Assembly (NCBI GenBank): GCA_947053645.1
Contig: CAMRTM010000001.1
Span: forward strand, 9,430 to 73,429
Reading direction: 5' to 3'
DNA: 64,000 nucleotides
Source of the DNA: an uncultured Bacillota bacterium
GTDB taxonomy: Bacteria; Bacillota; Clostridia; Christensenellales; UBA1242
Positions 1-21,328 of the stretch are shown one piece after another. The notes under the pieces were generated by a model. It saw only the letters and a list, made by a program, of their open reading frames with translations, made no database searches and was not told where the DNA came from. Within the stretch, counting starts at the first letter, position 1. The number at the start of each line of letters is the position of its first letter. A program made the translations under genes and the position numbers.

Positions 1-12
1 TAAAATTGAGTA

Positions 13-43
13 TTGACAAATCCCCCCCCCGCCATGCTATAAT
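13..43 (+). promoter_or_regulatory. Sigma-A-like promoter with a C9 tract in the spacer: TTGACA (13-18), 19-nt spacer, TGcTATAAT (35-43)
   Basis: Consensus -35 TTGACA and extended -10 TGCTATAAT read directly. The C9 run at 22-30 lies inside the spacer. An AAAGGAG RBS and the ATG at 71 follow. Confidence 0.7.
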
Positions 44-70
44 ATAGCTATAAAGAAAGGAGAAAGACAA

Positions 71-523
71 ATGACAGGGAAAGAAGCAGCTATTTTTGTT
101 AGCGGGGTTGTAATTTCATTTGGTGTACTTGGAGGCGGAACTGTTTGGCATCTCTTAAGCAACTTAACAATGCAAAATACTTTAATGTATTACATGAATT
201 CAGCAGAATACCGCCAAGCATGTAATACTGCAGAAGAAAAGTTAAAGACACTAGAAGATGCAATGACTTCAAACAGCGATGCTGAAAAAATTGCTGAACT
301 TGCCAAGCAGTACAACGATTTTAAAGCTAAGTATGAAAGTCGAGACTTTGTTATAGAAAACTTGAAGCAAAACGAACTTGGTAAGGTATACGCAAAAGCA
401 GAGAATGGATATATTGCATCCACGATGATGATGATAATGTCCGGTATGGCAGAAGGTGCATTTGTAATGCTACCACATGTATTCAATAGCAAAAAAGTTG
501 TAGAGGAAGACGACGAAATGTAA
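71..523 (+). CDS. Small membrane protein, hypothetical (150 aa)
   Basis: Good RBS (aaaggagaaagacaaATG). N-terminal TM helix (AAIFVSGVVISFGVLGGGTVWHLL), a second hydrophobic segment near the C-terminus, and an acidic tail. I recognise no family. Confidence 0.6.
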   Translation: MTGKEAAIFVSGVVISFGVLGGGTVWHLLSNLTMQNTLMYYMNSAEYRQACNTAEEKLKTLEDAMTSNSDAEKIAELAKQYNDFKAKYESRDFVIENLKQNELGKVYAKAENGYIASTMMMIMSGMAEGAFVMLPHVFNSKKVVEEDDEM

Positions 524-529
524 TAATAA

Positions 530-559
530 AACAAGTCATGAAAAGTGGCTTGTTTTTTT
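530..559 (+). terminator. Rho-independent terminator after the 150-aa ORF
   Basis: Hairpin acaagtc...ggcttgt followed by T7. Confidence 0.7.
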
Positions 560-687
560 AAAGTCATCTCTAATGTACATAAGATGAATTAAGTGGTACA
601 AAATAAGTGTATAAGATATGCCAAAAGAGGGGAATTTTGAAAAAAATAAAGATTTTTAAAATTTTTTGGAAAAATTTGGAATTCTAT

Positions 688-716
688 TTGACAACCTCCC
701 CCCCCCGTGCTATTTT
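688..716 (+). promoter_or_regulatory. Second promoter with a C9 tract in the spacer: TTGACA (688-693), 17-nt spacer, TGcTATTTT (708-716)
   Basis: Same architecture as the promoter at 13-43, and alignable with it (TTGACAA..TCCCCCCCCCG..TGCTAT). The C9 run is at 698-706. Confidence 0.65.
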
Positions 717-769
717 AGAACTATGGCTAAGGGTAGCCAAATGATTAAATAAATTAAAAGGAGGGTAAA

Positions 770-1468
770 ATGAAAAGTTTATTTAAATCAAAAAATTACA
801 TGATTGGAGCGATAGTAGCCGTATTGCTTCTAGTGCCTTGCATGTTTTTGCTTACTGCATGTGGCGGAAATACTGTAAAGGTGTCTACTTATGACGAACT
901 TGCAAATGCACTTGCTGGCAAGTGTGATACAATTGAAGTTACTGAAGATATTGATATGAAAGGACAATTAGAAGTGGGAAGAAAGGTTACTTTAAACCTT
1001 AATGGTAAAACACTTTCAAACTCAGCGGATATTTGGGATGACGGAGATAGCAAATCATGGTCATTAATTTCAGTTGGAGAGAATGGGCAACTTACAATCA
1101 AAGGTAATGGTAAAATGCTTGCAAAAGAAAATGATTGCTATGCATTTGATGTCCGTGACGGTGGCAAACTGACAATTGAAAACGGTGAATTTGTCGGCAA
1201 TATATCTGTAGTCTATGTGAACAAGGGTAGTGCTGAAATTAAAGGCGGAAAGTATTCGCTTGTACAACTTTCACCAGATGAGAGATTTACTTTAAACTGC
1301 CTTGACGCAAATTATAAAGAGGGTAGTGCTAAGATTGTTGTAACTGGCGGAGAGTTTAAAAACTTTAATCCAGCAGACTGCTTGGCAGAAGGCGAGGGGA
1401 CAAGTTTTGTTCCAGAAGGATACACTGCAAATCTTGTAGAAGGCTACTACAAAGTTGTAAAAGCTTAA
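770..1468 (+). CDS. Putative surface lipoprotein (232 aa)
   Basis: Signal peptide with lipobox LLTAC-GG. RBS aaaaggaggg. Repetitive G-x-L-T-I-x-N/G strands suggest a beta-helix-like fold. No named family recognised. Confidence 0.65.
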   Translation: MKSLFKSKNYMIGAIVAVLLLVPCMFLLTACGGNTVKVSTYDELANALAGKCDTIEVTEDIDMKGQLEVGRKVTLNLNGKTLSNSADIWDDGDSKSWSLISVGENGQLTIKGNGKMLAKENDCYAFDVRDGGKLTIENGEFVGNISVVYVNKGSAEIKGGKYSLVQLSPDERFTLNCLDANYKEGSAKIVVTGGEFKNFNPADCLAEGEGTSFVPEGYTANLVEGYYKVVKA

Positions 1469-1482
1469 AAAAATATACAATA

Positions 1483-1511
1483 AAACCTGCATTAAAGTGC
1501 AGGTTTTTTAT
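1483..1511 (+). terminator. Rho-independent terminator
   Basis: acctgc-attaaagt-gcaggt followed by a T-run. Confidence 0.8.
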
Positions 1512-1618
1512 ATTGCGTGTTTCTCTTTATTAAAAAAAATATTAAATTAATTAATATATAATTATTTGACAAAAGAGAAGCGAAAGGGGTATTATTAAGT
1601 ATATTTATAGGAGAAAAA

Positions 1619-2638
1619 ATGAAAGAGCAGTTGTTAAAAATTAAAGAAGACGCCCTTAAAGAATTAGGTGGGGTAAAAACCCTTAATGAACTTAATGAGT
1701 TAAGAGTAAAATATCTTGGAAAGGCAGGCGAACTTACCTTGATTTTGCGTGGTATGCGAGATGTTGCTCCAGAGCAGCGACCTATAATCGGCGCGCTTGT
1801 AAATGAAGTGCGTGAGACTTTGGAAAGTGCAATAAAAGAGCAGAATGACAAACTGGAACTTGAAGCACTTAATGCTCGCCTTGCAAGTGAAAGAGCAGAT
1901 ATAACTGAGCCAAGTAAAGGAAGTAAGAGGGGTGCGTTGCACCCAGTGACCCGCGTGCTTGATAAACTAATTTCCAGTTGTGTAGACATGGGGTTTAGTG
2001 TAGTGCAAGGTCCAGAAGTTGAAACTGATTATTACAACTTTGAAGCTATGAACATACCTAAAAATCATCCCGCAAGAGATATGCAGGACTCTTTCTATAT
2101 CACAGAGAATCTTCTTCTTAGAACTCACACTTCGCCAATGCAAGCGCGTGAACTTGAAGTAAGAAAGCCGCCATTTAAAATAGTTGTACCGGGGGCCACA
2201 TATAGAAACGATAGCGATTCGACTCATAGTCCAGTCTTCCACCAAATGGAAGGGCTTGTTGTTGACGAGCATGTTTCTATGGCCGACCTTAAGATTATGC
2301 TTAATGAACTTATGAAAAGACTTTTTGGCGAAAGCACAAAAACAAGGTTTAGACCTGCCTTCTTCCCATTTACAGAGCCAAGTATTGAACTTGATGTAAC
2401 TTGCCCAACCTGCCACGGCGAAGGTTGTCGCATCTGCAAGGGTACTGGCTGGCTTGAACTTTTAGGTGCGGGGGTGGTAAACCCTAAAGTGCTTGAAATG
2501 AGTGGGGTAGATAGTAAGAAATATAAAGGCTTTGCTTTCGGAATTGGAATAGAGCGTCTTGCAATGGTGCTTAATGGAGTGCCAGACCTAAGGACACTTT
2601 TCAAAAATGATATTAGATTTTTAAATCAGATGAGGTAA
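1619..2638 (+). CDS. pheS: Phenylalanine--tRNA ligase alpha subunit
   Basis: 339 aa. Class II aaRS motifs (FRPAFFPFTEPS, GFAFGIGIERLAM). Immediately followed by pheT. Confidence 0.97.
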   Translation: MKEQLLKIKEDALKELGGVKTLNELNELRVKYLGKAGELTLILRGMRDVAPEQRPIIGALVNEVRETLESAIKEQNDKLELEALNARLASERADITEPSKGSKRGALHPVTRVLDKLISSCVDMGFSVVQGPEVETDYYNFEAMNIPKNHPARDMQDSFYITENLLLRTHTSPMQARELEVRKPPFKIVVPGATYRNDSDSTHSPVFHQMEGLVVDEHVSMADLKIMLNELMKRLFGESTKTRFRPAFFPFTEPSIELDVTCPTCHGEGCRICKGTGWLELLGAGVVNPKVLEMSGVDSKKYKGFAFGIGIERLAMVLNGVPDLRTLFKNDIRFLNQMR

Positions 2639-2643
2639 GAAAA

Positions 2644-5034
2644 ATGAAAGTAACATACAATTGGCTAAAGGAATTTGTAGATATTGACATCTCAGCGGAA
2701 GAACTTGCGAAGCGTCTTACAAATGCCGGTATGGAGGTAGAAGAACTTGTTTATCAAAATGAGCATCTTCATCATGTTGTTGTCGGAAAGATTTTGAAAA
2801 TAGACCGCCATCCACAGGCTGATAAATTAGTTGTTTGTCAGGTTGATATTGGAAGCGAAGTGACCCAGATTGTTACTGCGGCAACAAATGTCTTTGAAGG
2901 TGCATTAGTGCCAGTAAGCCTTGCTGGTGCTGACTTATGCAATGGAATTAAAATAGAAAAGTCCAAACTAAGAGGTGTGGACTCTTTTGGTATGTTCTGT
3001 AGTGGCGAAGAACTGGGCATCGATGACAATTACATCGAAGGTGCAAGCGTCAATGGTATTTTAATTCTTCCAGAGGATTTTGTTGTTGGAACTGCAATTG
3101 ATAAGGCGCTTGACCTTGATGATGTTATCTTTGATATAGGCGTGACACCAAATAGGTCAGATTGTATGAGTGTGATTGGTATTGCGCGTGAAGTATGTGC
3201 AGTGCTTGGAAAGACAATGAAAGAGATAGACCTTTCGTATAAAGCGAATGGTGATGATGTAAACAACCATGTGACGGTTAATGTCCTTACTGATAATTGT
3301 CATAGATATATGGCAGGTTATATTCGTGATGTAAAAATCGAACGCTCGCCAATGTGGGTAAGGCGTAGACTTAATGCGGTAGGAATCAAGCCTATTAACA
3401 CGCTTGTCGATATTACAAATTATGTCCTTGTTGAAATGGGACAACCGCTTCATGCTTTTGACGGAGCGCTATTAGTAAATAATCATATAATTGTCCGTCA
3501 GGCTGAAAAGGGGGAGCGATTAGAGTGCTTAAACCATAATGAGTATTCGCTAGACTCTGAAGTAATGGTAATTGCTGATGAAGAAAAACCGGTAGTTATT
3601 GCTGGTGTGATTGGCGGAACGAACTCTTGTATTAATGAGAATACCTTCTGCTGTGTCCTCGAATCTGCTGTGTTTGACTTGAAAAGCATTAGACTTACAA
3701 GTAAGCGTTATGGTGTGCGTACGGACTCTTCCGCACGATACGAAAAAGGTGTAAATGTCGCTTCCGCTGAAGACGGCATAAAACGCGCGCTTCATCTTGT
3801 AGATAAAATGGGTTGTGGTACAATTTCAAAGGGGCTTATTGACCTTAAACAGAAAGAAAATGAAACTAGACGGTTAGAAGGTTCGATAAATGAGATTGAT
3901 AAAATTTTAGGTATAACGGTAGAACCTAAGATTATGAAACGCATTTTGGATGGGCTTTCTATAAAAACAGAAATTGAAGGCGATAAACTTATATGTGAAG
4001 TGCCTCCATATCGCGAGGATATTGAAAATAATAATGACCTTGCCGAAGAGATTATTCGTTTCTATGGCTATGATAAATATGATGAACTTGGACTTGCACT
4101 TTTTGCAAATGCAAGTGTAACGGAAGGGCGTGAACTTCCAAGGATGTCGCTTGAAAATAAAATGAAAAATGTACTTGTAGATAATGGATTCTATGAAACA
4201 TTGAATTTCTCGCTTTGCCCACCAGATGTTTGTGATAAACTTCTTATAAACGATTTACGCAAAGAGCATGTAACTATAACAAATCCTATTTCTGAGGATA
4301 TTTCCTGTCTTCGTACAAGTATGGCACATGCACTTCTTGTTGACCTTGAAACAAACCTTAAAGTCGGAAATGAAGATATTCGATTGTTTGAAATAGGCAG
4401 AACTTATCATCCAAAAGAACTTCCTGTTCGTCATCTTCCAATAGAGAAAAATAGATTATCCTTCCTTGTAAATGAAAAAGGCTTTGATTTTTTCCATATG
4501 AAAGGATTAGTTGAAAACTTACTTTTAATAACTTCTGTAGAATATAAACTTGTTCGCTCGAAAGAAAATTATCTTCATCCAAACATAAGTGCAGATATAA
4601 TTTGTGGCGAGAATACAGTAGGCTGTTTTGGTAAAATTCATCCGCAGGTCGCTAAAAACTATGATGTTGACGCAGATACTTATTACGGTGAACTTGATAT
4701 GGACTATCTATCTCAGTATCAAGAAAAGGGATATTGCGTGAAAGCGGTTTCTAAATTTCCGATTGTAGAGCGTGATATCGCGGTTGTTGTCGATGAAGAC
4801 AAAACTTGTGAAGAGATTTTAGGTGCGGTTAAGTCGGCGTGTGGCAACCTTTGCTATAGCGTGAACCTGTTTGATATTTATAGAAGTGCCACTCTGGGCG
4901 AGGGCAAAAAGAGTATGGCGATAAAAATAAGACTTTCAAGCACTGATCATACACTTAAAGATGATGAAGTGAATGGAGTGATCAATAAAGTACTTAAAGC
5001 CCTTCAGTTTAGATTTGGGGCGGTTTTAAGATGA
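2644..5034 (+). CDS. pheT: Phenylalanine--tRNA ligase beta subunit
   Basis: 796 aa. N-terminal tRNA-binding OB domain (MKVTYNWLKEF...), B3/4 and B5 regions, and a C-terminal FDX-ACB-like domain. Confidence 0.97.
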   Translation: MKVTYNWLKEFVDIDISAEELAKRLTNAGMEVEELVYQNEHLHHVVVGKILKIDRHPQADKLVVCQVDIGSEVTQIVTAATNVFEGALVPVSLAGADLCNGIKIEKSKLRGVDSFGMFCSGEELGIDDNYIEGASVNGILILPEDFVVGTAIDKALDLDDVIFDIGVTPNRSDCMSVIGIAREVCAVLGKTMKEIDLSYKANGDDVNNHVTVNVLTDNCHRYMAGYIRDVKIERSPMWVRRRLNAVGIKPINTLVDITNYVLVEMGQPLHAFDGALLVNNHIIVRQAEKGERLECLNHNEYSLDSEVMVIADEEKPVVIAGVIGGTNSCINENTFCCVLESAVFDLKSIRLTSKRYGVRTDSSARYEKGVNVASAEDGIKRALHLVDKMGCGTISKGLIDLKQKENETRRLEGSINEIDKILGITVEPKIMKRILDGLSIKTEIEGDKLICEVPPYREDIENNNDLAEEIIRFYGYDKYDELGLALFANASVTEGRELPRMSLENKMKNVLVDNGFYETLNFSLCPPDVCDKLLINDLRKEHVTITNPISEDISCLRTSMAHALLVDLETNLKVGNEDIRLFEIGRTYHPKELPVRHLPIEKNRLSFLVNEKGFDFFHMKGLVENLLLITSVEYKLVRSKENYLHPNISADIICGENTVGCFGKIHPQVAKNYDVDADTYYGELDMDYLSQYQEKGYCVKAVSKFPIVERDIAVVVDEDKTCEEILGAVKSACGNLCYSVNLFDIYRSATLGEGKKSMAIKIRLSSTDHTLKDDEVNGVINKVLKALQFRFGAVLR

Positions 5035-11512: not shown

Positions 11513-11804
11513 ATATCCTCCTAATTATATTTAAACTATATCATATTTATGTTATATTGTCCAGGCGAAAATTTTGCTAAAAACAAAAAAGAAGTTTACT
11601 TCAATCTCTAAACCTCTTTTTCGCTAAATGTGAAGCATATCTCCTTCACACTATTATAATGTGCAGGGAGGGGAATATTATACAAAGATTTTTAAATTTT
11701 TTTATAAATCATTCCTCCTTATTTTCTTCCTAACGCAGCTTGCATTTTGAATCGCCTTTGCAGGACTTGTCCGAAACAGCGAGAAAAATGCAAGCAAGTG
11801 CCTT

Positions 11805-12842
11805 TTATTCCTCTCTTAACTTTACTTTGTCTGCAACGCTTTTTCTCATATCTTCATTTATTGCTGCGTAGTGTTTCTTTGTTGTATTCACATCTTTGTG
11901 ACCGAGTACATCGGCGACGATATAAATATCTTTAGTTTCTCTGTATAAATTTGTGCCATATGTGCTTCGTAGTTTGTGTGGAGAAATCTTTTTAAGCGGA
12001 GAGGCAATGCGTGCAAATTTCTTGACTAAATTTTCCACCGCGCGTACTGAAATTCTTTTATTTTGTAGAGATATAAACATTGCCTTTTCGTCTTTATCAA
12101 GTTCAAGGGTTGCGCGCTTTTCCAGCCATGTTTTAAGTGCCATTGCTACTTCGTGTGAAAAATATAACATGGATTGATTTCCACCTTTTCTTGTTACTAC
12201 AAATGCGTTTTGATTGAAGTCAAAACTTTCTACATTAAGCCCAACAAGTTCGCTGATACGAATACCTGTGCCAAGGAATAGGGTAATTATGGCATTGTCG
12301 CGTTCAAAGGTGTTTTTGTTGTAAGAAATTTGTTTTTGTGTAAACTCTGTGGGATTTTCAACCGCATTCATAAGTGCGGAAACTTCGTTCTGTTCAAGCC
12401 TTATAATCTCTTTGTTGTGTAGTTTAGGTGTTTCAATCTTGCTAGCAATGTTTGAAGATAATAAATCATGGTTAAAAAGATATTTAAATAGACTTCTTAG
12501 AGAGGCGAGTTTTCTTGCCTTGCCTTTTTCACTGTTTCTATAGGTTTTGCCGTCCTTTTCATAAATTGCTATATAAGACAAAAACTGCTCAATATGGCGA
12601 GATTTTAGTGTGTCTAAGTCCTGAGTGGTGATCTTTTCAGGTGGCTTTTTAAAAACAAATTCGCTTAAATAATCAAAAAATACAGCAAAGTCCATGGCGT
12701 AGTTGTATCTTGTGAGTGAACTTGTATTATTTTCCACGCCTACGAAAAAGTCATAACAAAACTCTGGAAGATTATCAAGGTATTTTCCAGTCTTAATTCT
12801 GTTTTGCATATCGCGTCTTTCATAGAAAGAAGGTTTTTCCAT
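11805..12842 (-). CDS. Tyrosine recombinase/integrase (XerC/XerD-like family)
   Basis: 345 aa. Catalytic signature GTGIRISEL (R), HKLRSTYGT (HxxR), LGHKDVNTTKKHY (H...Y). N-terminal SAM-like core-binding domain. Confidence 0.85.
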   Translation of the reverse strand: MEKPSFYERRDMQNRIKTGKYLDNLPEFCYDFFVGVENNTSSLTRYNYAMDFAVFFDYLSEFVFKKPPEKITTQDLDTLKSRHIEQFLSYIAIYEKDGKTYRNSEKGKARKLASLRSLFKYLFNHDLLSSNIASKIETPKLHNKEIIRLEQNEVSALMNAVENPTEFTQKQISYNKNTFERDNAIITLFLGTGIRISELVGLNVESFDFNQNAFVVTRKGGNQSMLYFSHEVAMALKTWLEKRATLELDKDEKAMFISLQNKRISVRAVENLVKKFARIASPLKKISPHKLRSTYGTNLYRETKDIYIVADVLGHKDVNTTKKHYAAINEDMRKSVADKVKLREE

Positions 12843-13013
12843 ATTTATATTATATCTTTTTTTTATTTTAAAGTAAAGTAAATTAGACTACTATATATTG
12901 TGGCTATTATGCACATACTAGCCACAATAACGCCAATATTTAGATAGTTTTGCTATAAAAATAGTTGCTTTTATTATATTTAATATTTATAATTACAAAT
13001 ATAAGGAGCAAAA

Positions 13014-14297
13014 ATGATTGACATAAACTTGATAAGAACAAATCCAGACCTCGTAAAAGAGAACATAAAGAAGAAATTTCAAGATCAAAAACTTCCTCTT
13101 GTAGATGAGGCAGCCTCTCTTGACAGCAAAATTCGTGCCTTAAAGCAGGAAGGCGATAATTTGCGTGCAAGCAGAAATACGCTTTCAAGCCAAATTGGTA
13201 TGCTTATGAAAGAGAAAAAACTTGAAGAAGCAAACGCTATTAAGGCTAAAGTGCTAAAAAATAACGAGAGAATTTCAGAGATTGAAACAGAAGAACAAGA
13301 ACTATCTGCTCAATTGCGTAAGATAATGCTAACAATCCCAAATCTCATTGATGCTAGTGTGCCTATTGGCAAGGATGATAGCGAAAATGTAGAGGTGGCA
13401 AGATTTGGCGAGGCAAATGTCCCAGAATATGAAATTCCATATCATGCTGATATTCTTGAAAATCTATCTGGTGCAGATTTTGAAAGTGCAAGAAGGACAA
13501 GTGGTACTGGATTTTATTATCTCATTGGCGATATTGCAAGGCTTCATTCGGCAATACTTGCATATGCGCGTGATTTTATGATAAACCATGGATTTACTTA
13601 TTGTATTCCGCCTTTTATGATTAGAAGCAGCGTAGTCACAGGTGTGATGAGTTTTGATGAAATGGAAAACATGATGTATAAAATTGAAGGGGAAGACTTG
13701 TATTTAATTGGTACTAGTGAACATTCTATGATTGGTAGATTTAAAGACACAACTTTAAAGGAAAACTCTTTACCACAATGTTTGACATCCTATTCTCCAT
13801 GCTTTAGAAAAGAAATTGGTGCTCATGGCATTGAAGAACGCGGAGTTTATCGCGTACATCAGTTTGAAAAACAGGAAATGATTGTTGTATGTAAGCCAGA
13901 AGAATCTATGGAGTGGTATGAGAAAATGTGGCGACTTTCTGTAGAATTATTTCGCAGTATGGATATTCCTGTACGCCAACTTGAATGTTGCAGTGGCGAC
14001 TTGGCAGATCTTAAGGTAAAATCTTGTGATATTGAAGCATGGAGTCCAAGACAGAAAAAATATTTCGAGGTTTGCTCTTGCTCTAATTTAGGCGATGCAC
14101 AGGCAAGACGACTAGGAATTAAATATAAGACCGATAAAGGCTTGTTATTAGCACATACGCTTAATAATACCGTTGTTGCACCTCCACGAATGCTTATTGC
14201 ATTTTTAGAGAACAATTATAATGAGGACGGTAGTATTCGTATCCCTAAAGCATTACAGCCATATATGGGCGGAAAAACCGTTATTACTAAAAATTAG
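13014..14297 (+). CDS. serS: Serine--tRNA ligase
   Basis: 427 aa. N-terminal coiled-coil arm and class II core (GTSEHSM, RVHQFEKQE, NNTVVAPPRMLIAFLEN). Confidence 0.96.
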   Translation: MIDINLIRTNPDLVKENIKKKFQDQKLPLVDEAASLDSKIRALKQEGDNLRASRNTLSSQIGMLMKEKKLEEANAIKAKVLKNNERISEIETEEQELSAQLRKIMLTIPNLIDASVPIGKDDSENVEVARFGEANVPEYEIPYHADILENLSGADFESARRTSGTGFYYLIGDIARLHSAILAYARDFMINHGFTYCIPPFMIRSSVVTGVMSFDEMENMMYKIEGEDLYLIGTSEHSMIGRFKDTTLKENSLPQCLTSYSPCFRKEIGAHGIEERGVYRVHQFEKQEMIVVCKPEESMEWYEKMWRLSVELFRSMDIPVRQLECCSGDLADLKVKSCDIEAWSPRQKKYFEVCSCSNLGDAQARRLGIKYKTDKGLLLAHTLNNTVVAPPRMLIAFLENNYNEDGSIRIPKALQPYMGGKTVITKN

Positions 14298-14305
14298 GAG
14301 AAAAA

Positions 14306-15265
14306 ATGAAGGCACAAATCAGTAAATCGCTTATAGAAAGTATCATAAGGAATCAAAATACGCAGTATATAGAATCTACCAATGAAAAAGTAAATTCACT
14401 TTTAAGTTACTGCGTGGATGAACTTTCTAAAAAAACGGCATTTATCAGTCTTGATAATGTCATTTTGCAACCTATGAATGAACTTATAACTGGTGCCTTT
14501 ACAGATAATTCAAGTTTTGTTTATTTTTTAGGTATTGATAATGCGCAACTAGAGATAAACACGCTTTCAGCCACACAATTTTGGAAGAAATTCAAAGAAA
14601 GAGTGATTTTCGCATGGCAAAATCGCAATTCTAAAAAGAAAAAGAAAAAAAAGAAGAAAGATAAGGTTGAAGATAAAAAGAAAACCACTGATTTTAATCC
14701 GGAAAAATATAATTTGTATACGCTTTGCGAAGATTTACAAAATACGCTGGCAAGCAATTTATGTGTAACATCTATAGTTTATAGAGAAAATAATCGTCTT
14801 AGAATAGTTGGGAAAGACGATTTTGGCTCTAGCGTGCAAATTATAATATATCCAGTGTTTACCGATGGCGAAATTTATAAGTATTTTGTAGATAGAAAGA
14901 AAGGTTTTATTAAAATTAATAATGATATGCGTGTAACAGCACTTGAAAGTAAGGTAAATTCAGTGGGTGAGTCATTTATTGATATAATAAAAGTGTTTAA
15001 TGTGCTTTATTACAATGCAAATCGAGTTTTACCAAATCAAATCTTTATTGAAAGTTTGTTATGTAATTGCCCAAATGAATTATTTAGTGATAATGTATAC
15101 GAATCATTTATCAAAGTGTTGAATTATTTAGCTATGGCTGATGTGAAGAATTTTAAAAGTATAGTAAATCCAGATAAAGATATATTTGTAGACCAGTTAT
15201 GTGGAAATAGCGCATATGGATATAAAAAGATGATTAATAAATTGTTAGATATAAAAAATGATTGA
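14306..15265 (+). CDS. Hypothetical protein with an internal poly-lysine tract; possibly a degenerate nucleotidyltransferase-like fold
   Basis: 319 aa. Starts 8 nt after the serS stop with its own RBS (aggagaaaaaATG). KKKKKKKKKDKVEDKKK is encoded by an A-rich run that includes A8 at 14645-14652. The pattern TGAF-x10-FLGIDN loosely resembles the hG[GS]-x(9-13)-DxD NTase motif, but the acidic residues are not conserved. Confidence 0.5.
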   Translation: MKAQISKSLIESIIRNQNTQYIESTNEKVNSLLSYCVDELSKKTAFISLDNVILQPMNELITGAFTDNSSFVYFLGIDNAQLEINTLSATQFWKKFKERVIFAWQNRNSKKKKKKKKKDKVEDKKKTTDFNPEKYNLYTLCEDLQNTLASNLCVTSIVYRENNRLRIVGKDDFGSSVQIIIYPVFTDGEIYKYFVDRKKGFIKINNDMRVTALESKVNSVGESFIDIIKVFNVLYYNANRVLPNQIFIESLLCNCPNELFSDNVYESFIKVLNYLAMADVKNFKSIVNPDKDIFVDQLCGNSAYGYKKMINKLLDIKND

Positions 15266-15330
15266 TAAGATGCAATTTTATGCAAAAATATTAATTATTA
15301 AAAAATAACAAAATAGTTTGGAAAATAAGA

Positions 15331-15405
15331 CTAGTATGCACCATTCTATGCGTAAAAGTTGTGTTTTACGCATAGATTATAAAAGTTGCATACTAGTGTT
15401 TTTTA
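15331..15405 (+). terminator. Long nested hairpin plus T-run (terminator of the serS/319-aa unit)
   Basis: Outer stem ctagtatgca (15331-15340) pairs with tgcatactag (15387-15396). Inner perfect 13-bp stem tctatgcgtaaaa (15345-15357) pairs with ttttacgcataga (15364-15376). Followed by tgttttttat. Confidence 0.7.
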
Positions 15406-15544
15406 TCCCCGCTTTGATAAATATGTGACCTTAAGACCACTTCTTTCCCTATCCTATTCCACTTTTTACCCCTACTCTATTTAAAATCCCCGTGATGACG
15501 AAAGTGAATAAAAAACAGCCAAGCGGCTGTTTTTTTTGTTTGCA

Positions 15545-16165
15545 CTACCCTATTTGTAGAACGAAAGAGTAGATATCAAGTTGCTTTTTAAGGGCTTTAT
15601 AGTCTGGACAGTGCGATTTTACTTCTTCCCAAAAGGCTTTGGAGTGATTTAGGTGGACGCCGTGACAAAGTTCATGGATTACTACATATTCTATTAGTTC
15701 TTTTGGCAGGATTACAAGTCGCCAATTTAATTTCATGTTGCCCTTTCTATCGTAACTACCCCACACATGACGGGAATTAGAAAGTTTAAAACTTTTATAT
15801 ATGAGTTGCGTTTTTGCGGAAATCTCTTTGGCAATGGTAGGCAAGTGTTTTTCTGCCTCTTTATGATAGAAATCTAAGAGTTTTCCATTTTTATTACCAT
15901 GCATTAGAAGGCTGAGGTCAATATCTTCAAATCTATATTTCTGCCCAAGCAGATAGATATAAGATTGAAAAGCAAACTCGTTACGGAAAGCATTGATTTT
16001 GTTCACCCGTTTTTGTTGCTTTTCAATCCAGTGTAACTTGGAGGTTATAAACTCCTCAATAACCGCATTAGAGGCCTTTAAAGGTGCTTTTACTATTATC
16101 TCCCCTTTGCCATTTACACGCATGGAGATTGTTTTTCGTTTTTCTCTTATAAGATTATATTCCAT
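15545..16165 (-). CDS. M48-like/DUF45 (YgjP-type) zinc metallopeptidase
   Basis: HELCHGVHLNHSKAFW motif typical of DUF45. I prefer the ATG at 16165 (MEYNLIREKRKTISMRV...) over the TTG at 16204 in the ORF track, because that TTG lies inside the upstream terminator. Confidence 0.75.
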   Translation of the reverse strand: MEYNLIREKRKTISMRVNGKGEIIVKAPLKASNAVIEEFITSKLHWIEKQQKRVNKINAFRNEFAFQSYIYLLGQKYRFEDIDLSLLMHGNKNGKLLDFYHKEAEKHLPTIAKEISAKTQLIYKSFKLSNSRHVWGSYDRKGNMKLNWRLVILPKELIEYVVIHELCHGVHLNHSKAFWEEVKSHCPDYKALKKQLDIYSFVLQIG

Positions 16166-16200
16166 ACTTATATTATAGCACGATTTATAAAAATACTGAA
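16166..16200 (-). promoter_or_regulatory. Extended -10 promoter TGcTATAAT (16172-16180) placed 6 nt before the ATG (leaderless geometry)
   Basis: The minus strand reads TTCAGT-17 nt-TATAAT-ataagt-ATG. There is no SD between the -10 and the start codon. Confidence 0.5.
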
Positions 16201-16228
16201 ACAAAAAAGTGGCAAAGCCACTAATTTG

Positions 16229-16894
16229 TTAACCTTCGTATTCCCCTTGATTTTCAAGTATTTTAATTCGTTTATCAAGCATCTCTATCATACCCTTTAT
16301 TCCTAGTTTGCTAGAACCGAGATATTTTTTATTGATGTAACCCTCTCTATTAAAGTAAGGTGCATTTGGGCATACATGTATAAAATCCCCATAAACCTTA
16401 TCAGCATTGTCTAAAACGTTTTTGCGAGCATTGTCATCCACAAAGTAAAGTGTTTTAACTTCATACTGGTGTTTTATTTTGTTGAGGTCATCAAGAATCT
16501 TTGTATTAGTAGGTCGATTTTCTTTAATCTTATTAAAAGAGTTTCCCCAATTATTCCAGCCAGTAAATTTACCTAATTTCCATGTTTGGTCTTCTGTCAT
16601 TATAAGGCTGCAGTCCTCAATGGAGAATTTCTCTTTATTATTTTCCCAAAATGTTATAGTAGACATCCAAGCAGAAGCGGGATAGATTTCATTGCTATCC
16701 ATGTTAGTATGGCTGCCATCCAAATAGAAGTGAATAATGTTTGTTACCTCGCCTTCAAGTTTTCCTATTTTGGCGATTTTTTCAAACATGGAATAGACAA
16801 TGGCGGTGTCATCTTCATCAATGCTCATGCATGAGCCAAAGTCGAATACTGTTTGAAGTTCTATCATCCATACATTTACTTGTTTCTTCCTCAT
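16229..16894 (-). CDS. Hypothetical protein (221 aa)
   Basis: The ATG at 16894 lies 8 nt downstream of AAAGGAGG. The GTG at 16903 in the ORF track overlaps the SD. No family recognised. Terminator agtggc-aaa-gccact at 16203-16222. Confidence 0.55.
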   Translation of the reverse strand: MRKKQVNVWMIELQTVFDFGSCMSIDEDDTAIVYSMFEKIAKIGKLEGEVTNIIHFYLDGSHTNMDSNEIYPASAWMSTITFWENNKEKFSIEDCSLIMTEDQTWKLGKFTGWNNWGNSFNKIKENRPTNTKILDDLNKIKHQYEVKTLYFVDDNARKNVLDNADKVYGDFIHVCPNAPYFNREGYINKKYLGSSKLGIKGMIEMLDKRIKILENQGEYEG

Positions 16895-17090
16895 ATAGCA
16901 CACCTCCTTTATGTTTTCAGTATATCATAGATATTTTGTTTGTCAAGGGTGAAATGTTTTTATGCCGCTATTATGCAATGCATATTAGCACAAGATATGG
17001 CAAAATTTTTGCATAATAGTGCCAATTTGTTTGACGAAGTCACTATTTTTATATATAATTTATTTATAAATATATATTAACGAGGGAAAT

Positions 17091-18788
17091 ATGGATATTT
17101 ACGCAAAAGGTCAACTTTCTTTCTTGATTTTAAACTGTCTTTTAGAGAGAGATTTTTATGGGCTTGATATTATCACTGAAATAAGAGAGCGTACGAATGG
17201 AAAAATAGACTTAAAGAAGCCTAGCGTTTATTCAAACCTTACAAGAATGGAAAAGCAAGGGCTTGTTTCTTCATATCTGCAATCAAGCGATCTTGGCCCA
17301 AACAGACGCTATTACTCTATTACTGAAAGAGGAAGAAAAACGCACCAAGAGTTGAAAGAAGAGTTTGAACGCAACCATTTTGATGTATTTAGAGATTTTG
17401 GTGAGGCTGAAGATGAGCCGATAGCACAACCTATCCTATCGCAAGAGCAACCAGCCTCAGTCCTTTCTCCTATGCAAGAAGATATGGAGGAAGATGAAGA
17501 AGAAATGGATGGCTTCTTTGATTTTTCTTCGCTTGATTCCCCTAAGCCAAGTGAGCCTAAACAATCAGTTTTTGTACAAGAAGAAGTTAAAGAAGACCCT
17601 GTGATAGTAGATTCTGTAATTGAAGAAGCACTTTTAGTAACCGAGCCTGTGAAAGAGCCAGAGCCAGTCCAAGAGGTTATTTCTACACCAGCAACAGAGG
17701 AGGAGTCAGTGCCATATATTTCCCCTCTTAAAGCACAAGCACAGGAAACAAAACAAACAAGTTTTGATGACCCAGATTACAATAAACGCATTTATGATAT
17801 AACTAAAGATTTTAACAAGTATCGTAGAAAGAGAAGTTTTGCGGAAGATCAATTGGCTTTTGATGTAAAGGATACCGATTTTTCTCTTCAAGACTCAGAG
17901 GCTAAGAGACAAGAAAAAATAGAAGTTTTCAAGTCTGCCCTTCTTGAAAGTAAGGGGCGTTTTGGTGAGAGAATGGCAGAGGAAGAATTTAAAAAACCAG
18001 CCACTCCAGCATATACAAGGCCTATGCCAGTGCCTACTCCTATGGCACAAGAGGAAAAGGAAGAAGAAAAGCAAGATGATGGTGTGTTTATAACAAATCG
18101 AGTTGAACGCGAAAATGTTATGCGTACCCGCAAGATTGAACCTCCTAGGCTTAAGATAGTAAATGAAAATCCACCTCTCCCAGCACCTAAGCGTGATGCA
18201 AGTATAGATCCTTCTCACAAGGAAATCATTTCACAATTATATTCAAAGAGCAAAGGTTCAGATACCGTGCAAGAGGAATTAGATATTGGCTTATACGATT
18301 ATGACGATCTTTCAGATTACTATAATGCAAGCAATATTTCATTTAAAACATATGAGCAGAATAAAGCGAAAACAAAGCATAATACAAACAAACTTAACAT
18401 GATTGCCTCTGCTATCACATTTACTCTACTATGTATTTTCTCTAGCGTGTTATTTGCTGTACTCTACACACAAGGTTTGACTAATCCTAATACAAGTTTT
18501 CTTTACATAATTATTCCAGGTGCGTATTTCATTGATGTTTGTGCAAAACTATCCGCACTTAAAAATACAAGTTGGGAGCCTAAGCCTATGCTGCCTCAAT
18601 GGTTTATGTGGCTTATGACATTACTAACTTGCGGAGTTGTTGTCGGACTTAATTTCTTATTTGGAATGAATATTGAATCCTTATCTTTATATTACACTAC
18701 CCTCATTCTTCCAATTGTTTCAATTATAGCTGTGCTTCCATTTAGATATTATGTAAAGCGTAATCTTTTTATAAGAAAGTGGAAATAG
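17091..18788 (+). CDS. PadR-family winged-helix domain fused to an acidic/proline-rich linker and a C-terminal multi-pass membrane domain
   Basis: 565 aa. The N-terminus (LILNCLLERDFYGLDIITEI...SVYSNLTRMEKQGLVSS) is PadR-like. About 330 aa are low-complexity and E/P/K-rich. The C-terminus has about 4 predicted TM helices. Confidence 0.7.
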   Translation: MDIYAKGQLSFLILNCLLERDFYGLDIITEIRERTNGKIDLKKPSVYSNLTRMEKQGLVSSYLQSSDLGPNRRYYSITERGRKTHQELKEEFERNHFDVFRDFGEAEDEPIAQPILSQEQPASVLSPMQEDMEEDEEEMDGFFDFSSLDSPKPSEPKQSVFVQEEVKEDPVIVDSVIEEALLVTEPVKEPEPVQEVISTPATEEESVPYISPLKAQAQETKQTSFDDPDYNKRIYDITKDFNKYRRKRSFAEDQLAFDVKDTDFSLQDSEAKRQEKIEVFKSALLESKGRFGERMAEEEFKKPATPAYTRPMPVPTPMAQEEKEEEKQDDGVFITNRVERENVMRTRKIEPPRLKIVNENPPLPAPKRDASIDPSHKEIISQLYSKSKGSDTVQEELDIGLYDYDDLSDYYNASNISFKTYEQNKAKTKHNTNKLNMIASAITFTLLCIFSSVLFAVLYTQGLTNPNTSFLYIIIPGAYFIDVCAKLSALKNTSWEPKPMLPQWFMWLMTLLTCGVVVGLNFLFGMNIESLSLYYTTLILPIVSIIAVLPFRYYVKRNLFIRKWK

Positions 18789-18816
18789 AAAAAAGCAAGT
18801 TATACTTGCTTTTTTC
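18789..18816. terminator. Bidirectional terminator at the convergence point of + and - strand gene blocks
   Basis: A6-agcaagt-tat-acttgct-T6. The stop codon of the minus-strand gene (18800-18802) lies partly in the loop. Confidence 0.8.
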
Positions 18817-19420
18817 TATTTATTAATTTTCTATTAATTGCTTTTATAAGACTTATTGATAAATCTATAGTAAGGAATACAACGACTATTGCTATTGAAA
18901 ATATAAGTATATACCCGATTGAATTTGAAAGCACAGTACATAGTAGTGTCACAATACTACAAGAGATAAAACCACCTATCGCAATCGAAAGAAGTGACCA
19001 GTGTAACTTTAGATTAGAAAGTCCAGCTATAAAACTGCCCGCCCAGATACCAGTCAAAGGAAGAGGCAAAGCGACAAATGTAGTAAGAAAAAGGTATTTT
19101 TTAAAGGTGCTTTCCTGTTTTTCAAGTAATGTAGATTTGACGCTATACCTACTTTTAAGAACGCCAGTTAAAAAGCCAGTGGTATGGCGTTTTATTTTTC
19201 TTGCGAGAAACATAATCAATATACTTGGAAGAATGCTGCCAACAAATCCAAAAAGTAGTGCTTGCCACGGTGGAAGAGCAGTCCCACCCCATAAACTTGT
19301 ATTCATAGCAAAAGGTATTGCGATTTTACTTTCAAGCGTGGGAATCATTGCAAGTAAGATTACAGCAAGCCAAATACAGGACGAAAAATTTTCAGCAAAG
19401 ATTTTAATTACATTATCCAT
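18800..19420 (-). CDS. Membrane protein, small multidrug export-like family (COG2426-like)
   Basis: 206 aa. ESKIAIPFA and LPLPLTGIWAGSFIAGL resemble the conserved motifs of that family (E-x-x-x-AIP, PLP-x-TG-x-W-x-G). Confidence 0.45.
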   Translation of the reverse strand: MDNVIKIFAENFSSCIWLAVILLAMIPTLESKIAIPFAMNTSLWGGTALPPWQALLFGFVGSILPSILIMFLARKIKRHTTGFLTGVLKSRYSVKSTLLEKQESTFKKYLFLTTFVALPLPLTGIWAGSFIAGLSNLKLHWSLLSIAIGGFISCSIVTLLCTVLSNSIGYILIFSIAIVVVFLTIDLSISLIKAINRKLINRKKQV

Positions 19421-19496
19421 ATTACTATATTATTCTTACGAATTAGCGAATATGAAAAAAAAGTGGCTCGGCCACTTTTTTTATAATCAATAATTG

Positions 19497-19715
19497 TCAC
19501 TTCTTCTTCCTAAATAAGAATATTACACACAATGCAAATGGAATGGCACACACCCCTATTATTAGCGGAGTTAAAGGAATAAGTAATCCCCTTAAAGCAA
19601 ATACATCCACCCCACAGGCGTCAAGAATAGGAATATATGCAAAACTAACGCCAATGAGAGATAACGATAAACCCATTAGAACTATCTTCCAAAATAATTT
19701 CATAAGATTCTCCAC
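19497..19715 (-). CDS. Small membrane protein (72 aa)
   Basis: Two hydrophobic helices and a basic C-terminus (RKKK). Followed by terminator agtggc-tcg-gccact at about 19458-19486. Confidence 0.45.
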   Translation of the reverse strand: MENLMKLFWKIVLMGLSLSLIGVSFAYIPILDACGVDVFALRGLLIPLTPLIIGVCAIPFALCVIFLFRKKK

Positions 19716-19741
19716 ATTTATCTAGCGAGTGCATAATGCAC

Positions 19742-21328
19742 TTATTTTGCTATATCGCTGAATCTAGATTCGCGGATTACATTTACCTTGATTTGTCCTG
19801 GGTATTGCATCTCATTTTCAATTCTCTTTGCAATATCTTTTGCAAGGAACATTGCGTCATTATCACTGATTTCTTCAGGTTTAACGATAATACGCACCTC
19901 TCTTCCTGCTTGAATTGCGTAAGATTTGTCAACGCCTTTGAAACTGTTTGAAATCTCTTCAAGTTGTTGTAGGCGTTTGATATAGTTTTCAAAACTTTCT
20001 CTTCTTGCACCAGGTCGTGAACTTGAAATAGCGTCTGCGACTTGTACTATGATTGCTTCTATACTATGGAATGGAACATTACCATGGTGAGCTTCAATAC
20101 AGTGAATAACCTCTGGGCTTTCCTTGTATTTCTTTGCAAGATCTACACCAATAGTAACATGAGTGCCCTCTACCTCGTGATCAAGAGCTTTACCAATATC
20201 GTGGAGGAAGCCACCTCTTTTTGCGATAGTTGCATTTGCACCAATTTCACTTGCTATCATTCCAGCAAGGAGTGCGGTTTCAATACTGTGTTTTAAGCAG
20301 TTTTGACCATAACTTGTCCTATATTTAAGTCTTCCCATAACTTTAACAAGTTCCGGATGAAGATTGTAAATCGCAACTTCATTGCAAGCGTTATCTCCGG
20401 CTTCTTTGATAGTCTTTTCAACTTCCTTAGTTGCCTTATCAACAACCTCTTCTACGCGTGTTGGATGAATTCTGCCATCTACAATAAGTTTTTCAAGAGA
20501 AAGTCTTGCAATTTCTCTTCTGATAGGGTCAAAACTTGAAATAGTGATTGCTTCTGGTGTATCGTCAACTATAAGTTCAACCCCGGTTACACTTTCAATA
20601 GAGCGGATATTCCTTCCCTCTCTACCAATAATTCTACCCTTCATTTCGTCATTTGGAAGTGCTACTGTTGTAACAGTCATTTCGCTTGAAAGGTCGGTGG
20701 CACATTTTTGAATGGCGCCCATAACTATTTCTTTAGCACTATTTTCTGCGTTTTCTCTTGCTTCATCCTCTATTTGTTTAACAAGAATGCCAGCGTCTTT
20801 CTTTGCCTCTTCAGTGATTGATGAAATGAGAACATCCTTGGCCTCTTTCTTGCTCATGCCAGAAATCTTTTCAAGTTTTTCAAGCATTTCTTCTTTGATT
20901 TTGTTGTGTTCTTCAATTTGATTTGCGATTTTTACCCTTTCGTTTTCAAGAGAATTACGCTCTTTATCAATTTGTTCAAGTTTAGTATCAACAGATGTCT
21001 CTTTCTTAGATACATACTCTTCTCTTTGCGATAAACGCTCTTCCATCTTTTGAATTTCATTGCGTCTTTCTTTTGCCTCAATATTGGCATCGTCTTTAAT
21101 CTTTTGTGCTTCTTCTTTTGCTTCTAGAATGCTTTCCTTTTTGATAGTCTTAGCTTCTGCATATGCCTCTTCAATAATCTTAACTGCATTAGATTTGCTT
21201 TTTCCAATTTTCTTTGTTGCAATAAGTTTATATAATAATATGCCCGCACCCACACCTACTATGGCGCAAGCAATTCCTATAACGGCGGCAATAGCAGGAG
21301 CAACACTACATAACATACTTATGCTCAT
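19742..21328 (-). CDS. rny: Ribonuclease Y
   Basis: 528 aa. N-terminal TM, coiled coil, KH domain (GREGRNIRSIESVTGV), HD domain (GFLHDIGK). Confidence 0.96.
   Translation of the reverse strand: MSISMLCSVAPAIAAVIGIACAIVGVGAGILLYKLIATKKIGKSKSNAVKIIEEAYAEAKTIKKESILEAKEEAQKIKDDANIEAKERRNEIQKMEERLSQREEYVSKKETSVDTKLEQIDKERNSLENERVKIANQIEEHNKIKEEMLEKLEKISGMSKKEAKDVLISSITEEAKKDAGILVKQIEDEARENAENSAKEIVMGAIQKCATDLSSEMTVTTVALPNDEMKGRIIGREGRNIRSIESVTGVELIVDDTPEAITISSFDPIRREIARLSLEKLIVDGRIHPTRVEEVVDKATKEVEKTIKEAGDNACNEVAIYNLHPELVKVMGRLKYRTSYGQNCLKHSIETALLAGMIASEIGANATIAKRGGFLHDIGKALDHEVEGTHVTIGVDLAKKYKESPEVIHCIEAHHGNVPFHSIEAIIVQVADAISSSRPGARRESFENYIKRLQQLEEISNSFKGVDKSYAIQAGREVRIIVKPEEISDNDAMFLAKDIAKRIENEMQYPGQIKVNVIRESRFSDIAK

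Follow-up and report, generated by a model that had tools for sequence, protein, structure and literature searches.

The two predicted promoters and the genes behind them

The window, by which we mean the whole 64-kb stretch of DNA that was analysed, is chromosomal and carries the housekeeping genes pheST, thiI, argR, recN, serS, rny, tgt, infB and thrS together with an iscS-like gene. It also encodes SpoIVB, and therefore a spore-forming member of the Clostridia is indicated; a YpeB gene adjoins a related locus, and the two genes would place the lineage among uncultured low-GC Clostridia. No RNA family of Rfam was matched in the window, and neither mutS nor mutL was seen within its 64 kb. Near its start lie two predicted promoters, each with a run of nine C between -35 and -10 and each followed by a gene. 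The features, all on the forward strand, are as follows.

13-18, forward strand: -35 hexamer of site 1, TTGACA (consensus), read from the sequence; kept in the ortholog at locus L240
22-30, forward strand: C9 homopolymer of site 1, within the 19-nt spacer (19-37); L240 has C9 at the equivalent place
35-43, forward strand: extended -10 of site 1, TGcTATAAT; its counterpart in L240 is TGgTATAAT
57-62, forward strand: Shine-Dalgarno sequence of site 1, AAGGAG, 8 nt before the ATG; kept in L240
71-523, forward strand: gene for a small membrane protein of 150 aa, with an N-terminal transmembrane helix, a coiled-coil-like middle and a hydrophobic C-terminal segment
524-560, forward strand: intrinsic terminator, a hairpin and U-run that end the 150-aa cassette (-13.7 kcal/mol, z = -6.0)
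688-693, forward strand: -35 hexamer of site 2, TTGACA, invariant in L001-L004, L124 and L125
698-706, forward strand: C9 homopolymer of site 2, within the 17-nt spacer (694-710), read from the sequence
708-716, forward strand: extended -10 of site 2, TGcTATTTT (TATTTT at 711-716), from the sequence and a promoter scanner
760-764, forward strand: Shine-Dalgarno sequence of site 2, GGAGG, read from the sequence
770-1468, forward strand: lipoprotein gene (232 aa, lipobox LTAC), the product of which has a putative pectate-lyase-like adhesive domain (PF20585)

At site 1 the order of elements is TTGACA-aat-C9-gccaTGc-TATAAT, with TGc at 35-37, TATAAT at 38-43 and a spacer of exactly 19 nt. The original prediction had named these two promoter elements, nine C between them and a 19-nt spacer, and the sequence agrees with it letter for letter. 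The tract lies wholly between -35 and -10, and thus where its length sets the spacer, as had been proposed. The membrane protein said to lie downstream is also there, as an open reading frame with a ribosome-binding site and an N-terminal transmembrane helix. Judged by position only, this ribosome-binding site and the ATG at 71 come 27 nt after the -10. The promoter scanner overlooked site 1 because only spacers of 16-18 nt were allowed.

A second C9 promoter, absent from the original prediction, lies 675 bp downstream of the first. This site 2 has the order TTGACA-acct-C9-gTGc-TATTTT and is listed by the scanner at 688-716 with a spacer of 17 and a TG; its ribosome-binding site and start codon come 53 nt after the -10, again by position only. 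At both sites, -35 and -10 were assigned from the consensus alone. The leader of site 2 (window 724-739) can form a small hairpin (GGCTAagggTAGCC), the stem of which is partly kept in the sister species; its folding is not statistically significant (z = -1.6).

The window has a GC content of 35.6%, and its two C9 tracts are the sole C or G runs of at least 7 in it; G runs of 6 or more are absent from the 64 kb. Under an i.i.d. model with the composition of the window, about 0.02 runs of at least 9 would be expected in 64 kb. This bears out the earlier claim that a run of nine C is improbable by chance in such AT-rich DNA, and both C9 runs are found in TTGACA/-10 spacers. The composite TTGACA-N4-C8 was observed twice, compared with 0.00 occurrences in 100 dinucleotide-preserving shuffles. 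Both long C runs of the 64 kb are in promoter spacers, and both precede envelope-protein genes. The two C9 promoters lie within 700 bp of each other in the window, and this genome thus holds several loci of the kind, as a phasome does.

The genomic slot and an ortholog of site 1

The 150-aa protein is a strain-specific near-orphan. It had no match but itself among 5.8 billion proteins, and when 1.84 billion cluster representatives were searched exhaustively with HMMER, one real, remote relative emerged, P0122. A further protein search for relatives of site 1 returned P0122 alone again. Exact-protein look-ups for the window's 150-aa protein, PheS and ArgR gave no matches, and few strains of the window species can be compared because of this. 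The target of site 2 is of the surface type, a lipoprotein with a PF20585 adhesive domain, and the genes behind both sites are thus accessory or surface-type. The PF20585 match of this 232-aa lipoprotein scored 24.8 bits against a cutoff of 24.3, and at least 455 relatives of the family occur in gut metagenomes.

Four assemblies of the same species (L001-L004, about 99% identical) contain site 2 and the lipoprotein gene and lack the 150-aa cassette. Of these, L001 goes back to run SRR35209590 and L003/L004 to ERZ12802915/16. Their homology to the window begins at about position 560, and a pseudouridine synthase gene lies upstream there instead. Between pheS and the pseudouridine synthase gene lies an island of variable content (1-770 in the window, about 1900-3000 in L001/L002 and 2225-3009 in L240). 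It holds the cassette and the lipoprotein gene in the window, the lipoprotein gene only in L001-L004, and in L240 a 141-aa homolog alone, turned the other way. On its left side the 150-aa cassette extends beyond the window.

The 141-aa homolog on L240 is P0122, which shares 33% (BLASTP) or 36% (phmmer) identity with the 150-aa protein. L240, from run SRR15322609, belongs to a sister species, the PheS of which is 92.9% identical to that of the window. The P0122 gene occupies this same slot, flanked by pheS and the pseudouridine synthase gene, with its orientation reversed and no lipoprotein gene beside it. Its promoter reads gggtaTTGACA-at-C9-actaTGgTATAAT and has an 18-nt spacer. Compared with window 1-70, promoter and leader are about 83% identical, whereas nucleotide identity of the coding sequences is 49%; the gene thus diverges rapidly behind a conserved C9 promoter. 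The spacers of 19 and 18 nt differ because of a flanking A, the tract length being equal.

Tract length at site 2 and in the lipoprotein family

The original prediction had turned on tract length, to be compared among related genomes, and the outcome differs between the two sites. At site 1 both known copies have a C9 tract, the comparison covering L240 plus one similar place. At site 2 it was found as C8, C9 and C10, as follows.

Window: C9, spacer 17
L001: C10, with acct changed to act, hence spacer still 17
L002 (JGI contig Ga0081461_1001386, an exact match to site 2): C9
L003: C9
L004: C8, at about 2.6x coverage
Sister species L124/L125: C9, spacer 16; lipoprotein 93% identical, DNA upstream of the -35 fully diverged

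A scan of a metagenome contig collection with the DNA of site 2 gave 0 matches; the collection is one without the sample of L002.

The lipoprotein family was used to draw 80 metagenome loci, blind to the presence of a tract. An ortholog promoter of the form TTGACA-t-G9-aatttgaTATCAT (27x) was also found as G10 and as an interrupted G5AG4 allele. Other close relatives of the lipoprotein have TTGACA-tt-G8, TTGACA-aatt-C10 (73x) or TTGACA-aatcca-C9, and identical-protein look-ups added G9 five times, G8 once, a G8 at 58x and C9 twice, the last with flanks identical to those of the C10 allele. Site 2 and its gene family are therefore polymorphic in tract length (C8-C10 and G8-G10) between identical flanks. 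The occurrence of both C and G tracts in one gene family speaks against a binding motif specific to one strand or to C. Distant paralogs of the lipoprotein have ordinary promoters. In MAG L027, the lipoprotein gene has a G8 promoter and the adjoining 302-aa gene a C8 promoter; the ortholog of this neighbor in L234/L235 has C9, and L027 and L234 have two adjacent tract-promoter genes each. In some related genomes (L126-L131 and L134-L135) an ABC transporter is followed by two copies of the lipoprotein gene in tandem, each of 240 aa and with ordinary, tract-free promoters.

For two pairs of contigs the tract was the sole difference, with 0 SNPs in 941 bp (L003/L004) and 0 SNPs in 1717 bp (L228/L232); contigs at about 2x coverage are included, and given this coverage homopolymer miscalls are possible in these pairs. 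The A7-8 runs of the same region also vary between strains, so that the C tract need not be a specially mutable one. Contig L227 starts exactly at the G tract of a lipoprotein promoter, as it would if the assembly had broken at a homopolymer that was heterogeneous or difficult to read. The first 40 nt of L051 (1-40) consist of poly-C junk that is probably a sequencing artefact.

A wider class of promoters with spacer tracts

We asked of 373 kb gathered through the lipoprotein family, again blind to tracts, how often C or G runs fall in promoter-like spacers, defined by a -35 with at most one mismatch to TTGACA, a -10 of the form TAnnnT and 15-21 nt between them. Runs of at least 8 did so in 10 of 11 distinct contexts, and runs of 6-7 in 0 of 33. 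Among the unselected tracts there were pure runs of 8 or more and no runs of 7. Long C/G runs in these genomes occur almost solely in this class of promoters.

A scan of species-representative genomes with the pattern TTGACA-N3-4-C8-N1-7-TGnTAT gave at least 119 loci; the scan is biased by its pattern and is no census. The matches listed concentrate in MAGs of uncultured low-GC gut Clostridia, Eubacteriales and Christensenellaceae, some of which have several loci, and further matches listed are from Mucispirillum (many per genome), Treponema, Saccharibacteria and Fretibacterium. Related MAGs with several loci each include CATLAM01 (L009, L058 and L069) and Lapin-012 bin35 (L053 and L109, of which L109 has two). 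In 85% of the low-GC matches listed, a ribosome-binding site and a start codon follow the -10 within 60 nt, compared with 8% at random positions. The tract is C9 in 48 of the 66 low-GC matches listed, and the spacers of these matches are bimodal, at 15-16 and 19-20 nt with few at 17. The 19-20-nt class resembles site 1; an example is L010, with TTGACA-ttta-C9-gccaTGtTATAAT.

Downstream genes of the matches listed are mostly uncharacterised accessory genes, many of them with signal peptides or lipoboxes; some encode BspA-LRR, choline-binding or WG repeats, or glycosyltransferases. Analysis of 48 genes behind such promoters with Pfam and PADLOC gave no unifying function, and no conserved sequence was found around the tract beyond the -35 and the -10. 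A phage origin was considered and rejected, the motif being rare in viral contigs (4 matches).

Several lineages showed patterns of their own. In Mucispirillum, including M. schaedleri, there are many stereotyped copies of cTTGACA-tt-C9-aTGaTATAAT, with a 15-nt spacer and mostly before lipoprotein or signal-peptide genes (L005, L016, L020, L028, L034, L044, L050, L052, L065, L067, L089, L092, L096, L101, L114 and L123). The Mucispirillum matches listed have this 15-nt form or a close variant with 15-16 nt, with the sole exception of L005 (20 nt). Cultured carriers of such promoters are Anaerocaecibacter muris CLA-AA-M11, with a C12 spacer tract (L087), and M. schaedleri, with C9 (L020). The scan also recovered Treponema loci with the layout of T. 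pallidum tp0126. In Treponema brennaborense (L097 and L100), three paralogous TTGACActa-C9-gTGcTATAAA promoters lie on one scaffold before signal-peptide genes, and they match the poly-G promoters known in T. pallidum. L026 and L056, both from one Bipolaricaulota MAG, share a 148-bp promoter segment at 96.6% identity; its tract is C9 on one contig and C12 on its counterpart.

Discussion

We interpret 13-43 as a sigma-A promoter with a hypermutable C9 spacer tract that acts as a slippage-driven expression switch, and we put the probability of this reading at roughly 0.65. The sigma-A (sigma-70-type) promoter would drive the strain-specific small membrane protein. Slipped-strand mispairing at replication would add or remove one C, and the distance between -35 and -10 would shift in 1-bp steps, altering promoter strength in a heritable yet reversible manner, as a phase switch or a rheostat. 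Since the optimum of tp0126 in T. pallidum is a 17-nt spacer, site 1 at C9 (19 nt) would probably be weak or OFF and stronger at C8 or C7, and site 2 at C9 (17 nt) would probably be ON. From the sequence we infer that the promoters are active, that slippage takes place within a clone, and which way and how strongly expression would respond. The finding of one family with C or G tracts of 8-10 in a conserved -35/-10 frame fits slippage-prone contingency promoters and not a sequence-specific binding site. The phase-variable switch originally predicted thus gains from the architecture, its non-randomness and conservation, and the existence of a class with C/G tracts of 8-10; at site 1 itself, C9 stands in both copies.

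Two features of the wider class count against such a switch. One is the strong dominance of C9 among the low-GC matches listed; a modal length of 9 is no objection in itself, because the proven tracts of T. pallidum and C. jejuni centre on G9 or G9-G10. The other, which bears on a simple switch, is that many pattern-selected matches have spacers of 15, 16 or 20 nt at C9. Bimodal spacers are not predicted by a model in which 17 nt is ON and one step away is OFF, which leaves some probability to a static role for the tract. With an extended -10 (TGn), the spacing to the -35 may be less important.

Some other explanations can be dealt with briefly. A C run could lie next to promoter-like hexamers by chance and have no function. 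TTGACA- and TATAAT-like hexamers abound in AT-rich intergenic DNA, and according to the scanner promoter-like sites in 1-3000 are fewer than in shuffles. However, two composites were observed for 0.00 expected, the architecture is kept in orthologs and in a sister species and recurs in many genomes with genes directly downstream, and 10 of 11 long runs are within spacers; chance is effectively refuted by these observations. The same can be said of a homopolymer that arose in sequencing or assembly. The obvious poly-C junk at some contig ends (the start of L051) and the contig L227, which ends right at the tract, are what such an artefact would leave, but the tracts stand in unique flanks in independent ENA, JGI, Logan and NCBI assemblies at up to 73x, and this explanation, too, is effectively refuted. 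It is also barely credible that the promoter is an invertible switch flipped by a recombinase, as in Clostridioides difficile, with the C tract incidental. Inversion is the sole mechanism of phase variation listed for Clostridia in a 2025 review (PMC11868660), a tyrosine recombinase gene lies at 11805-12842, and L240 carries the 150-aa cassette the other way round. Yet no near-perfect inverted repeats bracket 1-70 or 680-720, the recombinase is 11 kb off and looks Xer-like, and all assemblies compared show one promoter orientation. Inverted repeats that were considered as candidates are imperfect (73-93%) and mostly inside coding sequence, with none around either promoter.

A more serious alternative, although we regard it as rather unlikely, is that the tract is a static block of about 9 bp of G:C that serves promoter geometry or the binding of a regulator, and that differences in its length reflect slow evolutionary tuning. 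Among the matches listed, C9 is the prevailing tract whatever the locus, the species or even the phylum; it is kept in the ortholog of site 1 despite 33% protein identity, and also in species pairs that are 90-94% identical. The Mucispirillum matches are stereotyped as TTGACA-tt-C9-aTGaTATAAT with 15 nt, and spacers of the 15/16 and 19/20 classes do not readily pass for states one slip from ON. On the other side, a single family has C or G tracts of 8, 9 and 10 and an interrupted allele, with identical flanks and good coverage. Only the -35 and the -10 are conserved around the tract, the unrelated phyla speak against a lineage-specific factor, and proven phase-variable tracts share the G9 mode. 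Furthermore, the presence of runs of 8 or more without runs of 7, and of 0 runs of 6-7 in spacers, fits selection for mutability. We consider improbable the bolder proposal that the C/G block is, instead of or besides a length-variable switch, a fixed core-promoter element of about 9 bp, convergent in gut Clostridia, Mucispirillum, Treponema and Saccharibacteria. Such an element might act via A-philic G:C-tract geometry or an unknown factor; if real, it would account for both the sharp C9 mode and the 15/16 and 19/20 classes and would be a new kind of core-promoter element.

The mechanism behind the slippage-driven switch that we favor is already known. Homopolymer spacer switching is textbook knowledge for Neisseria, Haemophilus, Mycoplasma and T. 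pallidum. In 1995 Citti and Wise reportedly described vlp lipoprotein promoters of Mycoplasma hyorhinis with poly-A in the -35/-10 spacer. Similar to the promoters studied here, those of vlp belong to a Bacillota-related lineage and combine a conserved promoter and leader with divergent surface lipoproteins at several loci per genome. In contrast, their tract is poly-A of about 17 and not C/G of 8-10, and mycoplasmas are wall-less and non-sporulating and have reduced genomes.

Among the systems with G tracts, the closest is that of T. pallidum, where tp0126 and tprE/G/J/L have, as here, a G/C homopolymer of about 8-10 in the promoters of surface proteins. The tp0126 tract lies between -35 and -10 with an optimum at the 17-nt spacer, and in T. 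pallidum populations G9 is in the majority, with G8 and G10 in the minority (PMC7864442). Within one isolate, tprL tracts range between 7 and 11 G, the vast majority being G9 (PMC7864442). T. pallidum is, however, a spirochaete, and its heterogeneity within isolates and dependence of reporters on tract length are experimental, whereas the case made here is from sequence alone. The porA gene of Neisseria meningitidis has poly-G between -35 and -10, and its transcription depends on spacer length (PMC7864442). N. meningitidis is a Gram-negative pathogen for which switching rates have been measured, whereas the promoters described here have a perfect -35 and an extended -10.

C. jejuni has many poly-G loci per genome, a minority of them intergenic, and its tracts are held at G9-G10 by a bias towards insertion at G8 and towards deletion at G11 or longer (PMC8355987). 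The regime of tract lengths is the same as here; in contrast, most C. jejuni tracts are in coding sequence and act by frameshift, and C. jejuni has no functional mismatch repair. The invertible promoters of C. difficile (cwpV, flgB, pdcB and cmrRST) confer phase variation on surface or signalling genes (PMC11868660). Here the likeness is to phase variation in spore-forming Clostridia, and the difference is that these promoters depend on site-specific inversion between inverted repeats, which are absent from the present loci.

Phase variation in gut commensals, and in Clostridia especially, has so far been attributed almost wholly to invertible promoters. In the literature searched, homopolymer spacer switches were not found described for Clostridia or Mucispirillum, an absence there and not a proof, and the 2025 review gives only invertase-based switching for Clostridia (PMC11868660). 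The earlier statement that such a switch is undescribed in spore-forming Firmicutes therefore holds for the searchable literature. The feature itself is real, and it belongs to a wider class that seems to be undescribed. Our analyses suggest that uncultured spore-forming gut Clostridia keep slippage-prone promoters before fast-evolving surface proteins, and Mucispirillum appears to do likewise, independently. If true, this would add a second, recombinase-independent layer of bet-hedging in gut Firmicutes. It would also provide a predictor of variable surface antigens or adhesins for use on MAGs (TTGACA, 1-6 nt, a C/G tract of 8-10 and (TGn)TATAAT), and the homopolymer lengths in consensus MAGs could then mask functional heterogeneity.

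Two further observations were made. Around 16-19 kb of the window (region about 11800-20000), GC skew and gene orientation both flip sign, and the Xer-like tyrosine recombinase gene at 11805-12842 encodes a Phage_integrase domain and an N-terminal SAM-like domain; the window may span a replication terminus. Separately, at L044 (about 6283) and L045 (about 5710, reverse strand) a G8 run forms or abuts the Shine-Dalgarno sequence directly before a start codon (ttaGGGGGGGGtatATG and aaatttGGGGGGGGagtaaaaATG). These G8 tracts may represent a slippage switch at the level of translation, and L045 has both a C9 spacer tract and a G8 tract at its ribosome-binding site.
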